From Polyangiales bacterium (GTDB taxonomy: Bacteria > Myxococcota_A > Polyangia > Polyangiales > Ga0077539): a stretch of DNA of 64,000 nt. Where the stretch lies: positions 1-64,000 of the forward strand of contig JBGARZ010000002.1 of NCBI GenBank assembly GCA_044229975.1, in the 5' to 3' direction. Shown one piece after another: positions 6,985 to 51,536 of the stretch. A model generated the notes under the pieces. The model saw only the letters and a list, made by a program, of their open reading frames with translations, did no database searches and was not told the DNA's origin. Every line of letters begins with the position of its first letter. The first letter of the stretch is position 1. A program made the translations under genes and the position numbers.

Positions 6985-8173
6985 ACAGCGCGGCGCCGAG
7001 GGAGGTGCCACCGATGAGCACGGCCGCAACGACCAGCGCCGTACGCGGACCGCCACCGCCACCACCGTTGGTGCGAGGAGGCGTGGCGGGTCGTGGTGCC
7101 ATCGCGGCGCTCGAAGGAGCACCCGCGACGGCCGGACCGCCGGGCTGATCGAGGACGATCATCACGGTGCGCGCGCGCTTGTCCGCGAACTCCGCCCCGC
7201 GCACGACGGGACCGCTGGGCATCGGCGCGGGCGGCGGCGCCATGCGCGAGGCGATCACCCGCTCGGCGAGCGGGTACTGCCGCAGGGCAGCTGAGCCCAT
7301 CGGCTGTTGCAGGGCGTCGTGGAGCGCGGCGCCGAACACGTTCATCGACACGAAGCGGTGCTCGGCGCTCTTGGCCATCGCGCAGAGGATCACGGCCTCC
7401 ATCGCGGGGCTGATGCTCGGGACGATCTTGGACGGTGACCGAACGGCCTCCTGGAGGATGGCGTCGATGGTCGACTGTTCGCTCTCGCGCAGAAACGGCG
7501 ACGACCCGGTGAGGAGCTCGTAGAGCAACACACCGAGCGAGTAGATGTCCGCGCGCGGATCGACGGTGCCTGTGCCGGCGGCCTGCTCGGGGGCCATGTA
7601 CGCGGGGGTGCCGACGAGGAGCGAGCCGTTGTTCCAGGCGAGGCTGTCGTTGGGGTCGGAGAGGAGGCCCGCGATTCCGTAGTCCATGAGCACGGGGTAC
7701 GTCGGGGCGCCGAGGTTGCGCGCGAGGTACACATTGTCGGGCTTGAGGTCGCGGTGGACCACCCCGGCCCGATGGGTCGCCTCGAGCGCGGAGATGATGG
7801 GCGTGAGCAGCTGCACCGCTTCGAGGTCGGTGAAGCGCCCCTTCCGGTAGAGGAGGTCGACGAGCGTCTCCCCCTCCAGGTAGGTCAGCACCATGAACGG
7901 CGCGCCGTCGTCGGCGTACCCCGTGTCGAGGAGCTGCACCACGTGCGGGTGCGAACACATCGCCACGGCCTGCGCCTCGCGCAAGAACCGCTCGACGATG
8001 CCGCGGTCACGCACGAAGCGGGCGCGCAGCATCTTGATGGCGACGCGGTGCCCGCTGTGGAGGTGGAGGGCGGCGTAGACCAGCCCCATGCCCCCCTCGC
8101 CGATCTGGCGCTCGACCTGGTACGCGCCAGCGAGGACCGTACCGATCCTGATTGGCTCTGGGGGCGCGGACAT
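6956..8173 (-). CDS. Hanks-type Ser/Thr protein kinase with C-terminal TM helix
   Basis: GEGGMG, VAIK, HRDLKPDN, DYG, GTPAYMAPE. Confidence 0.95.
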   Translation of the reverse strand: MSAPPEPIRIGTVLAGAYQVERQIGEGGMGLVYAALHLHSGHRVAIKMLRARFVRDRGIVERFLREAQAVAMCSHPHVVQLLDTGYADDGAPFMVLTYLEGETLVDLLYRKGRFTDLEAVQLLTPIISALEATHRAGVVHRDLKPDNVYLARNLGAPTYPVLMDYGIAGLLSDPNDSLAWNNGSLLVGTPAYMAPEQAAGTGTVDPRADIYSLGVLLYELLTGSSPFLRESEQSTIDAILQEAVRSPSKIVPSISPAMEAVILCAMAKSAEHRFVSMNVFGAALHDALQQPMGSAALRQYPLAERVIASRMAPPPAPMPSGPVVRGAEFADKRARTVMIVLDQPGGPAVAGAPSSAAMAPRPATPPRTNGGGGGGPRTALVVAAVLIGGTSLGAALFIGWQYLHR

Positions 8174-8244
8174 CGCGGGGCAGTCTCTCAATCCGGCGCG
8201 TCGCGGGCAAGGGTTCTCGCGACGGGCGTAGAGTTGGGGCCCTC

Positions 8245-9621
8245 GTGCGCGCGATCCGACTCTCTCGAATCTTCCTGGTTGCGGTGCTCTTCGGTGCGTC
8301 CGCGTGTCGTCCGCGTGCGCCCCGGCGCGCCGTCCCCGATCGGTCGACCGTGGTCGACGCCGGGCGTGACAGCTTCATCCGTCACGCCGCGCACCCCGCC
8401 CTCGGATGTCCCGCGGTGACGGGCGACCGGACCGCCGGCGGGAGTCTCCACGGCGACACCGTCTCGGGCGTCGAGCGCTGGCTCGCAGCGGACAGCCCGC
8501 ACCGCGTCACCTACGGGCTGCATGTTCACCCAGGCGCCAGATTGACCATCGAGCCGTGTGCCCTGGTGCTCGTGGGAGCGGGCACCGAGGTCGTCGTGCA
8601 CGGCGGCGCGACGTTGCGCGTGGAGGGACAAGCGGGTCGCCCCGTGCACTTCGCGCGTCTCGACGTCACCAACGCGTGGCAGGGGCTCGAGCTGCGCCCC
8701 GACGTGCTCGCGGACACATCGCTCCACGAGCTGACGCTCGATGGCGCCGGGGCTATGCCGCCAGACCGTGGCGTGACGGCGGCCTCGCTACGTCTCGCGA
8801 TGAGCGCGGGGCTGGACGCCCGCGGCCTCGCGATCACCCGCAGTGTCGGATGGGGCGTCGCGGTGATGGGAGATGGACGCTTCGCCGACCCCGACGCGGT
8901 CGTGACGGTGACGGGGTCGCACGGCGAGGGGGTCGCGACGGTCGAGGATGTTCGACGCGTCGCCGACCTCCCGCGCTTCGAGGTTCGCGACAACGCGAGC
9001 GATGACGTGCGCGTCGAGGGGAGGGCGCGGACGCTGAGCGAGAGCGGACGCTGGCGGGCGCTCGGTGGAGCGGGGCGCTACCGCGTCCGGCCTCACATCC
9101 ACGTCGTGGTGGAGGGGCCGAGCGATCCGACGCTCACGCTGGACGGGGGCGCGCGGTTGGCCTTCGGCGAAGGGGCCGAGCTCGACGTCGGCTTCGGGGC
9201 GCCCGGCGCGCTCGTCGCGGTGGGGGACGCCATACACCCGGTTGTATTCGAGGGCAGCGAGGCGGCGCGCTGGGTGGGGTTGCACTTCGGCCCGAACCTC
9301 TCGCTCGCTCGCACTCGCGTGGCGTTCGCGCGCGTCGAGCACGCCGGAGAACCCTCGGGTTCGCTGCTGCCGACCTGCGGGGCAGACGACGCACGAACCG
9401 ACGAAGCCATGATCACCTTTCAGGGGGTCGATGGCGTCCGGGCGCTCCGCTCTGTGAGCTTCGTCGACGGACCACCCACGGGCTTCGCCATCGTCGTTGC
9501 GGGGGATTTCGCTGGACCAGCAGCTCCCTATGACCTTGTTGCGGGCGCGTTGGACTTTACGCGGTCGCGTGTTCGACACCCGTTGAGCCGGGCCCTGCGC
9601 GCCGGTCGATGTGCGCCATAG
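8245..9621 (+). CDS. Hypothetical lipoprotein, probable beta-helix
   Basis: Lipobox-like ASAC; two repeats of LTIEP/LTLDG…G…PV.F…W.G typical of myxobacterial beta-solenoid lipoproteins. Confidence 0.65.
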   Translation: MRAIRLSRIFLVAVLFGASACRPRAPRRAVPDRSTVVDAGRDSFIRHAAHPALGCPAVTGDRTAGGSLHGDTVSGVERWLAADSPHRVTYGLHVHPGARLTIEPCALVLVGAGTEVVVHGGATLRVEGQAGRPVHFARLDVTNAWQGLELRPDVLADTSLHELTLDGAGAMPPDRGVTAASLRLAMSAGLDARGLAITRSVGWGVAVMGDGRFADPDAVVTVTGSHGEGVATVEDVRRVADLPRFEVRDNASDDVRVEGRARTLSESGRWRALGGAGRYRVRPHIHVVVEGPSDPTLTLDGGARLAFGEGAELDVGFGAPGALVAVGDAIHPVVFEGSEAARWVGLHFGPNLSLARTRVAFARVEHAGEPSGSLLPTCGADDARTDEAMITFQGVDGVRALRSVSFVDGPPTGFAIVVAGDFAGPAAPYDLVAGALDFTRSRVRHPLSRALRAGRCAP

Positions 9622-9692
9622 GGCGCGTATGAGCGCAGGAATCCTTTGAATTCAGGCAAATCAAGCACGGGACGCACAATCTCGCGCGGGGG

Positions 9693-9710
9693 GTCAATCA
9701 TAATTTTGAC
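9693..9710. promoter_or_regulatory. Inverted repeat GTCAA-N8-TTGAC, candidate operator
   Basis: GTCAATCATAATTTTGAC in an AT-enriched intergenic stretch. Confidence 0.45.
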
Positions 9711-9912
9711 GCTGCTCGAATGTGCAGCTTTGGCGACTTTGGGAGGGTCACCGTCACGTCCTGGTCACCTGGGGGTTCCTGGTGTCATTTCCTTGGCTTA
9801 CCCCCCGGACGTTGCCTGTCCGATCGCGAAAATGGCTTGTAGCGCAGGCTCCTGCGATGGAGCCGGCGGCGTCGCGACGCGAAGCGTCGAAGGACGACGA
9901 ACGATTCTGATG

Positions 9913-10145
9913 GGAGCTCCAGGGGACAAAGCGTCACCTGCACCGACCTGAACGTCTGTCTGTGTCTTGAAGGGCCCCGGAATCTGGCGCACCAAGGGCG
10001 TGCGTCGGGTGGCTCTGGGCCCGACGGGCAGCGGACGGACGGACCCGCTGTCGCAGTGCATTGAAGGGCCCCGCGGATCTCCTTTGATGTGGTCGGGTCG
10101 GTGTCGCCTTCGGGTGACCGGTACCCCCACACCCTGGGGACCTCC
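9913..10145 (+). ncRNA. Candidate structured RNA (sRNA or 5' leader), family unidentified
   Basis: Nested long-range helices with at least 8 G-U pairs on the + strand (see findings). Confidence 0.65.
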
Positions 10146-10258
10146 GTTGGGGTGTTGGGAGTCGTGTGCCCGGTGAGCGGGCGCGCGGCCGGAGGGGCTG
10201 TGGTGGCCCCGACGGGCGGAGCCTTGTTGCGCGACAGCGCACGGTTGGAGGTCGAGAG

Positions 10259-10783
10259 ATGTCGATGGAGGAACCGATCGAGATGAGGCCCGGCAGCGTG
10301 GTGACGCTGTCACTGGTTCGCGAGGCGCTCGGCGAGGCAGCGCCCTCCCGCGGGCCCGTCGGACTCGCCGGGTCGCGCGAGAAGTCCAAGACCATCTCCG
10401 TGAAGCGCCTCTCCAAGCGGGAGATTGCGCGCTCACGGCAAGAGGTCGAGGGCTTCGCGTATCACCGCCCGCGGCATCGGGCGGATTGCCAGCACGGCGC
10501 GTTCGCGGCGCGGCCGTGCCCCTATGTTTCGTGCAAGTTCCACCTCTTCCTGGAGGTGAACCCGCGCACCGGGAGCATCCGGATGAACTTCGTCGACAAG
10601 GAGCCGTGGGAGCTTCTGGAGACCTGTGCGCTCGACGTGGCCGACCGAGGCGGCGTGACGTTGGAGGAGGTCGGCGGTTGGCTCAACCTCACCCGCGAGC
10701 GCGTTCGTCAGCTCGAGGTCCACGCCCTCGGCGTGCTCCGCGCCGTGTCGGAATCCGCCGAGCTCATGGACCTCTGCGGCTGA
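10259..10783 (+). CDS. Cys/His-motif protein with a sigma70 region-4-like HTH only
   Basis: C…[12 protein letters not shown]…TCALD, then [21 protein letters not shown] (sigma 4.2 signature); GGAGG RBS. Confidence 0.85.
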
Positions 10784-10876
10784 GCACAACGCCACGGCCG
10801 ACTCGATGCAGAGGGAGGCGGCGCGGGGTTTGGGTATAGTGCCCGCGCCGCGCCGGTGCGGCCCCCCGAAGGCGTC

Positions 10877-12451
10877 ATGACAACGATCCGTCGCGTCCTG
10901 GTTTCTGTCTCCGACAAGCGTGGTCTCGTGGACTTCTTGCGCGTCGTCGCCGCGAAGGGGGCTGAGCTCCTTTCCACGGGCGGCACCGCGAAGGCGCTGC
11001 GCGAGGGCGGCCTCACCGTCACCGATATCAGCACCTACACGGGCTCGCCGGAGATCATGGACGGCCGCGTGAAGACGCTGCACCCGCGGGTGCACGGCGG
11101 CATTCTCATGCGCGAGCTCGATGAAGATCGCGCGGCGCTCGCGTCCATCGGCGGCGAGCCCATCGACCTCATCGTCGTGAACCTCTACCCCTTCGAGGAG
11201 ACGCTGCGGCGGCCGGGCGCCTCGCACGAAGAACTCGTCGAGAAGATCGACGTCGGCGGTCCGACGATGGTGCGGGCCGCGGCCAAGAACCACGCGCGCG
11301 TCGCGGTGGTGGTCGACCCGGCGGACTACGCGCGGGTGCAGGCCGAGATCGAGGCCGACGGCGCCGTGTCGCACGCGACCCGGGTGTCGCTGGCGGCGAA
11401 GGCCTTCGCCCACACGGCGGCCTACGATGGCGCCATCGCGGGCTACCTCTCGGGCCTCGGCGATGACGGCGGGCGGGAGCGATTTCCGCGCTCGCTCCAC
11501 CTCGACTTCGAGCGCGCGTACTCGCTGCGCTACGGGGAGAACCCCCATCAGGAGGCGGCGTTCTATCGCGAGCGCGCTGCGGCGGAGGGCACGCTCGGTC
11601 GCGCCGAGAGCCTCGGGTCGGGGGGCAAGGAGCTCTCGTTCAACAACCTCGTCGACGTGGACGCCGCGCTCGAGGCGGTGCGCGAGCACGAGGGCCCGGC
11701 GGCCGTCGTGGTGAAGCACTGCAACCCGTGCGGCGTGGCCGTGGGCGCGACGCTCGAAGCGTCGTACCGGGCGGCGCGTGACGCCGACGCGGTGAGCGCC
11801 TTCGGCGGCATCGTCGCGCTCAACCAGCGGGTCGACGCGGCCACGGCGCGGGCCCTCGCCGAGACCTTCCTGGAGGCGGTGGCGGCGCCGGGCTTCGACG
11901 ACGAGGCGCTCGCGATCCTGCGCGCGAGGAAGAACCTGCGGCTGCTCGCGGTTGGCCCGTGGCTCACGGCCGACCATCGCGCGACGACGCTCAAGGCCGT
12001 GAGCGGTGGTCTTCTATTGCAGGACCGTGACGCCACGGCGCGCGACGAGGTCCGCCACGGCAAGGTCGCCACGAAGCGCGCGCCGACGGAGGACGAGCTG
12101 CGGGCGCTGACCTTCGGGTGGGCCGTGTGCAAGCACGTGAAGAGCAACGCGATCGTGCTGGCGCGCGGCGACGGCGGTGTGCTCCGCACGGTGGGCGTGG
12201 GCGCCGGTCAGATGTCGCGCGTGATCTCGGTGGACATCGCGGCGCGCAAGGCGGGCGACCTCGCGGGCGGGAGCGTGCTCGCGTCCGATGCGTTCTTTCC
12301 GTTTCCCGACGGACTGGAGCGCGCGGTGGAAGCGGGCGTGCGCGCGGTGGCCCAGCCGGGTGGCAGCGTGCGCGACGCCGAGGTCATCGCGGCGGCCGAC
12401 CGCGCGGACATCGCGATGGTGTTCACGGCGGTGCGACACTTCCGGCACTGA
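10877..12451 (+). CDS. purH: Bifunctional AICAR transformylase/IMP cyclohydrolase
   Basis: SVSDK, STGGT, GRVKTLHP, LRYGENPHQ, SDAFFPF, C-terminal RHFRH. Confidence 0.98.
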   Translation: MTTIRRVLVSVSDKRGLVDFLRVVAAKGAELLSTGGTAKALREGGLTVTDISTYTGSPEIMDGRVKTLHPRVHGGILMRELDEDRAALASIGGEPIDLIVVNLYPFEETLRRPGASHEELVEKIDVGGPTMVRAAAKNHARVAVVVDPADYARVQAEIEADGAVSHATRVSLAAKAFAHTAAYDGAIAGYLSGLGDDGGRERFPRSLHLDFERAYSLRYGENPHQEAAFYRERAAAEGTLGRAESLGSGGKELSFNNLVDVDAALEAVREHEGPAAVVVKHCNPCGVAVGATLEASYRAARDADAVSAFGGIVALNQRVDAATARALAETFLEAVAAPGFDDEALAILRARKNLRLLAVGPWLTADHRATTLKAVSGGLLLQDRDATARDEVRHGKVATKRAPTEDELRALTFGWAVCKHVKSNAIVLARGDGGVLRTVGVGAGQMSRVISVDIAARKAGDLAGGSVLASDAFFPFPDGLERAVEAGVRAVAQPGGSVRDAEVIAAADRADIAMVFTAVRHFRH

Positions 12452-51444: not shown

Positions 51445-51518
51445 GGGGTGGTAGCGAAGTTGGTTATCGCGCTGGCCTGTCACGCCGGAGATCGCGGGTT
51501 CAAGTCCCGTCCACCTCG
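51445..51518 (+). tRNA. tRNA-Asp(GUC)
   Basis: Cloverleaf: acceptor GGGGTGG/CCACCTC, anticodon loop CTGTCAC, T-loop TTCAAGT; no encoded CCA. Confidence 0.97.
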
Positions 51519-51536
51519 CAAGTTGTCTCGCAGATT

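Follow-up and report, generated by a model that had tools for sequence, protein, structure and literature searches.

An asgB-family gene ahead of purH in a Polyangiales bacterium: a probable reader of TTGAC-like DNA with a four-cysteine domain

The 64,000-nucleotide stretch of Polyangiales DNA analyzed here (the window; positions 1 to 64,000 of contig JBGARZ010000002.1) carries on its plus strand, at 10259..10783, a gene for a protein of 174 residues that is, judged from its open reading frame, its Pfam match and its alignment with AsgB, a member of the AsgB family. The gene appears to hold the ancestral position of this family before purH, and the protein is probably a DNA-binding regulator that reads TTGAC-like sequences. 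The initial annotation of this DNA had joined the protein with an upstream palindrome and a neighbouring structured RNA into a single system. That system is not supported by the comparisons made here: since the palindrome is found in one locus and the RNA is limited to one genus, the three-part proposal fails on the genomic side.

Over 140 residues, which cover both domains, the window protein shares 50% identity with M. xanthus AsgB (MXAN_2913; E 7e-44), a 163-residue UniRef entry (Q1D899, or Q1D899_MYXXD) under the name ‘DNA-binding protein AsgB’ that was reached via Myxococcaceae proteins. The source annotation of one close homologue gives the same name. From its N-terminus, the protein is laid out as a variable region, a basic segment at about residues 37-60, which had been noticed from the start, a four-cysteine domain and a sigma-4.2-type helix-turn-helix at residues 132-161. 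A ribosome-binding site, GGAGGT (10247..10252, plus strand), precedes the gene, and its GGAG is invariant in the genus alignment. Besides the four cysteines and the region-4.2 helix, the window protein and M. xanthus AsgB have in common their size class and, in close relatives, the purH gene downstream; they differ in that H95 of the window protein is Asn in AsgB, and in that the window genus has two copies of the gene. The family is large, with 3388 matches among 3971 candidates in one search and 2528 representatives at E<=1e-30 in another. An AsgB-type protein was found in 184 of the 301 phylum genomes searched, in a count that scored most genomes on 11 candidates only, and the impression that similar proteins occur across the myxobacteria was therefore sound. 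Annotated phages gave no match to an AsgB-like protein. As separate observations, one protein cluster of an atlas, largely viral in its members, is similar to the AsgB family, and some genomes carry divergent extra AsgB-like copies (L116-L121) that are not beside purH.

The initial annotation knew of no assigned function for these proteins, whereas the family is that of AsgB, whose mutants have been studied; given the 50% identity, the published phenotypes apply to the family of the window protein. Passages of PMC3986340 describe AsgB as a 163-residue DNA-binding protein with a region-4-like C-terminus, and the asgB mutant as severely defective in development, locked in the tan phase and over-expressing iron-uptake genes; according to the same passages, the prediction had been that asgB is essential, yet its disruption succeeded. 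AsgB is required for the A-signal according to passages of PMC4320627, and a footnote in the supplement of that paper has MXAN2912 preceding asgB and suggests that the two may share an operon. In passages of two preprints the protein is called a likely or putative transcription factor, and in a table row of PMC2129111 a DNA-binding protein; it goes unmentioned in the passages of an RNA-interactome preprint from 2025. The passages on AsgB name neither a target nor a mechanism, and a literature search that had most of the classic J Bacteriol papers outside its reach turned up neither a DNA or metal site of AsgB nor an RNA that partners with it. The present analysis offers three leads for AsgB: four invariant cysteines on which these passages are silent, a lone -35-like site kept ahead of the gene in four genera, and a conserved gene for a MerR-type partner.

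The DNA-reading part of the protein is a sigma70 region 4.2-like helix-turn-helix, encoded at 10652..10741 (plus strand) and recognized both by Pfam and in the alignment with sigma-A. Sigma70_r4 (PF04545) is the single Pfam match in the 174 residues; it covers residues 132-161 and profile positions 20-49 of 50, with 31.2 bits against a cut-off of 24.1. No Pfam match to region 2 or 3 of sigma70 was found in the protein, and the NCBIfam sigma models align with residues 118-172 only, far under their cut-off, which bears out the earlier description of a protein with sigma region 4.2 alone. Passages of PMC4943231 list the sigma70 residues for the -35 interaction and six core-binding residues, and we assigned their counterparts by an alignment through this genome’s sigma-A. 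All ten of the listed -35 residues from L573 to Q589 are kept in the helix of the window protein; the equivalents of K593 and R596 are replaced, by H155 and G158. As the residues from L573 to Q589 are kept, it is reasonable to infer that the protein recognizes TTGAC-like DNA. The likeness to region 4 of the primary sigma70 or sigma-A thus lies in the recognition helix and these -35 residues, and the difference is that the window protein is without regions 1-3 or 4.1 and has a four-cysteine domain fused in front. We propose that the helix would read TTGAC-like, that is -35-like, sequences, and that a protein without regions 2 and 3 would not open promoters; its effect at -35-like sites would be either to block sigma-A or to assist it. 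A -35 proposal for AsgB is said to go back to Plamann in 1994.

The purH gene (AICARFT/IMPCHase; 10877..12451, plus strand) is the conserved downstream neighbour. It comes directly after asgB in all nine genus loci and in 64 of the 70 AsgB-like loci from metagenomes; among the other loci it does so in 47 of 106. On the upstream side, a MerR_1 gene (match of 23.5 bits, cut-off 21.6) directly precedes asgB in 49 of 54 AsgB-like metagenome loci and 35 of 103 other loci, giving the order MerR-asgB-purH; examples of the MerR-type gene are found at L018:632-1150 and in the AsgB-like loci L133-L212. Left out of these counts are seven duplicates, the 6S locus, and loci with <900 nt upstream or <400 nt downstream; L120 was likewise dropped from one step of the analysis. 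The MerR-type helix-turn-helix gene was found in 11 of the 31 host-family genomes and in none of the nine genomes of the window genus (completeness 64-94%). It seems to have been conserved across the phylum and lost several times within the host family, and it is probably MXAN_2912, the gene order of M. xanthus being deduced here from related loci. Compared with M. xanthus, the window locus has a 640-nt non-coding region where the MerR-type gene would stand. A search for remnants of this gene in the leaders that are without it gave a best tblastn E of 0.14, and a short DNA-level match to MerR in the leader was seen in genus g5 only. Farther upstream in the window is a gene for 489 residues with no Pfam or NCBIfam match (8152..9621, plus strand), and several host-family genera also have this gene upstream of their asgB. 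The sole Rfam matches above cut-off in the window are tRNA-Lys (199-273) and tRNA-Asp (51445-51519).

The genome has a second asgB copy, at C38:845839, with 52% identity to AsgB over 147 residues. A quick tree (78 rows, 140 columns), whose backbone is poorly resolved, places both copies within the family clade (SH-aLRT 91), and the genus sequences form two clades in it (SH-aLRT 99 and 97), with a stem of 0.73 for the window clade and of 0.20 for the relocated one. We read this as a duplication within the genus in which the old-position copy apparently evolves the faster of the two; the window and relocated copies are likely co-orthologues of AsgB. Since the second copy is equally close to AsgB and has the shorter stem, the window copy may have changed its function. 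There is a real, if lesser, chance that the relocated copy has the role of AsgB and that the copy in the window is a duplicate on a diverging course whose targets have changed, which would fit the reading of the window protein as a TTGAC-like-reading regulator as well. In addition to the two clades and their unequal stems, this possibility draws on the second copy’s own conserved promoter boxes. In the DNA upstream of it (C38:845560-845840), a GTGA-N6-TCAC-like inverted repeat with CRP-type spacing stands immediately ahead of TTTTTGAC in 8 of the 9 relocated-copy loci, one of these 8 having a single mismatch, and a GGAGCTC box follows in 9 of 9. However, the window copy retains its four cysteines, its recognition helix, its position at purH and its ancestral upstream module in all nine genus loci, and the tree on which the stems depend is a quick one of 140 columns.

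The upstream module of the window copy has the form GAGCTC - TGAAC - N13 - TTG - N20 - CAC. It is present in 20 of 30 host-family loci, and these 20 are related and represent four genera, not twenty events; within this genome it is unique. A search of 93 other phylum loci did not find it, and 3 of 54 AsgB-like loci fit a loose two-box pattern alone. In the window, the module and its surroundings comprise the boxes ATTTC..(G/C)TT and GACGT-N3-CTGTC (9787..9820; 104-108 nt from the GAGCTC anchor), which are likely protein-binding DNA, the GAGCTC and CTGAAC boxes (9914..9954; 27-30 nt between AGCTC and TGAAC), and a promoter-like TTGAAG-N17-CACCAA (9967..9995, plus strand). The spacing of the module boxes is held across otherwise unalignable sequence in the four genera. 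No covarying helix was detected in 15 anchored loci, the five module loci without the GACGT box being excluded, and the one invariant 4-bp run was equalled in 74 of 200 shuffles. The folds of the module have z values of -1.3 to +1.9 in 20 loci and differ among loci, and the conserved-structure index upstream of about 10000 is low (SCI 0.05-0.17). This constancy of spacing without pairing points to promoter DNA as the best reading of 9693-9995, with several putative protein-binding boxes. The TTGAAG-N17-CACCAA element may be a weak promoter of the sigma-A type with a start near 10002; it was not called in a scan with the consensus promoter, and its -10, CACCAA, is non-canonical. Readings of the boxes as sigma-54 or ECF promoters were set aside, as their spacings do not fit the consensus sequences, and so was GAGCTC as a genome-wide site, with 0.69 occurrences per kb of crude intergenic DNA against 0.95 overall. 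The loci of genus g5 (L012, L213, L216, L217 and L219) have a different arrangement, in which the module is followed by a hairpin with a T-rich run and then by a second promoter-like element, TTGAC-N17-CGAATG, before the MerR gene; there may be a short leader transcript or an operator there.

Downstream of the promoter-like element, 10002-10258 would be the gene’s own 5′ leader, left long after the loss of the upstream MerR-type gene, and the simplest reading is that a group of hairpins opens this GC-rich leader, which would be about 257 nt long. Three genus-limited hairpins (10004..10090, plus strand) occupy what would be its 5′ end and are followed by two more (10096..10159, plus strand), the sequence of which is not conserved. 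The conserved structure is confined to about 10000-10110, so the structured RNA of the initial annotation stands in this part and not in 9693-9995, which is without conserved pairing; 9730-10000 folds like its shuffles (z +0.43), and 9730-10260 has a z of -2.56 (2 of 100 shuffles). We consider it possible, though doubtful, that the hairpins at 10004-10090 are a functional, genus-private element, either a cis-regulatory part of the leader or a small RNA, which acts on asgB expression apart from the protein; this too would agree with the protein being a regulator that reads TTGAC-like DNA. Among eight related sequences, whose alignment also supplied the structure itself, 93% of the cells are paired, against 43-57% in slid controls, and 8 of the 26 pairs have changed on both sides (1 of 500 shuffles); the SCI is 0.50-0.64 and 0 of 30 column shuffles were as stable. 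In contrast, the stability of the single sequences is ordinary (mean z -0.73, and -0.43 for the window’s own), the ninth genus member and other genera carry different hairpins, and a scan for terminators called none in the stretch from the hairpins to the start codon. A model built from the hairpins recovered only its 8 training genomes among the 31 of the host family and none of 100 distant loci, with one weak match (E 0.037) among 91 non-training sources.

Any likeness between the candidate RNA of the initial annotation and 6S RNA (RF00013) amounts to a few similar short words and a similar length; the candidate differs in having no RF00013 match, no rod fold with a central bubble, and no covariation. 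An Rfam search over 9550-10900 gave no match for the leader at E<=10 and two weak matches behind the gene. The 6S RNA of this genome is on another contig, at C20:79402-79588 (57 bits), and 28 of the 31 host-family genomes have one 6S match each. A 6S-like reading of 9765-9990 was tried as well; its stems can be drawn by eye, but the folds vary across 20 loci, and the 15 anchored loci gave no covarying helix.

The likely metal-binding domain of the protein extends from the codon of C77 to that of C123 (10487..10627, plus strand). Without exception (148 of 148), the aligned relatives have cysteine at C77, C87, C92 and C123, and 133 of the 148 keep H95. Of the metal site first pointed out (C…CPYVSCKFH…C), C77, C87, C92 and H95 are present, and C123 had been overlooked; because the four cysteines are invariant and H95 is replaced in some relatives, a four-cysteine site is more likely than the C3H site that had been suggested. 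The domain would bind a metal, most likely zinc, and would replace sigma region 4.1 as the scaffold of the helix. Of two predicted structures, the first has a pLDDT of 57 and the second a pLDDT of 88.5, but the latter merges the helix-turn-helix into one helix and is not trusted there. Foldseek with the predicted structures gave no match at E<=0.001, and the best VIA Z, 5.0 with the first model (pLDDT 57), concerns the helix only. An analogy is offered by the Wbl (WhiB-like) proteins, which are also small four-cysteine regulators tied to sigma region 4. Wbl proteins bind region 4 in trans via an Fe-S cluster, while the AsgB-family cysteines are spaced 9-4-30 and fused to the helix, and the 174 residues gave no Pfam match to Wbl. 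A more speculative idea, which we think unlikely, is that AsgB is a metal-sensing mimic of sigma at the -35, in which the four-cysteine domain, as an unannotated Fe-S or zinc domain, would switch the helix on lone TTGAC sites, among them the one kept ahead of its own gene, in competition with sigma-A. If true, this would tie the iron-dependent yellow/tan switch of M. xanthus and its A-signalling to one sensor, and would give AsgB its first candidate binding site.

It seems still less probable that the protein acts on RNA polymerase itself, either as a sigma-4 mimic on the beta-flap or as one of the two parts of a split sigma factor, the one with region 4, in the manner of SigO-RsoA of Bacillus. 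The near identity of its recognition helix with that of the primary sigma factors is compatible with such an action, and the broad transcriptome effects and the contested essentiality of asgB mutants would fit a global role. However, the first 19 positions of the Sigma70_r4 profile, corresponding to region 4.1, are unmatched in the protein, and of the six core-binding residues only G577 and L598 have counterparts, with none for E555, R562, F563 and I565. With these four and the K593 and R596 equivalents absent, binding to the flap is less supported than the recognition of TTGAC-like DNA. Moreover, the conserved neighbours are the MerR-type gene and purH, neither of which encodes a region-2 protein.

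For the window protein as a reader of TTGAC-like DNA, the candidate site nearest at hand is one half of the upstream palindrome. The two inverted TTGAC half-sites that had been described are indeed present, as GTCAA-N8-TTGAC at 9693-9710, but their pairing is at chance level, with 2 genome copies against 1.08 expected per spacing, and spacings of 0-30 giving 0-3 copies each. Of the 174 loci that extend 900 nt or more upstream, the window locus alone has the palindrome. The left half, GTCAA (9693..9697; a minus-strand TTGAC for which no -10 partner is evident), is invariant in the genus alignment (8/8), and all 20 loci with the module have it 198-223 nt ahead of their GAGCTC anchor; the right half, TTGAC (9706..9710, plus strand), is absent from all seven close orthologues and present in 1 of the 8 aligned genus loci and 1 of the 20 module loci. 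As a whole, the palindrome arose by chance in this lineage around a single conserved half-site, GTCAA, and this lone half is a candidate for an autoregulatory site. Only three other sites in the genome score as high with a matrix of the GTCAA box, and thus no regulon is visible. A sigma-A promoter reading from GTCAA on the minus strand was rejected, as inspection showed no conserved -10 at 16-18 nt.

That the protein binds this palindrome as a dimer under the control of the neighbouring RNA is very improbable: the palindrome does exist, with no change in its halves among the differences listed against a contig about 93% identical, and the three hairpins show some covariation, but the co-conservation of palindrome, RNA and gene across the phylum, put forward as a check, comes down to one locus of 174 and to hairpins confined to eight training genomes, with no Rfam match and with 6S RNA elsewhere. 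The surface of region 4 that reportedly binds 6S RNA would be the helix after the helix-turn-helix, and the window copy keeps few of its basic residues, having H155, G158 and V159 where the family has mostly R or K at 155, 159 and 161. Just after the GTCAA box there is also a small imperfect inverted repeat, CTG-N10-CAG (9712-9727), which is conserved in 8 of 8 genus loci.
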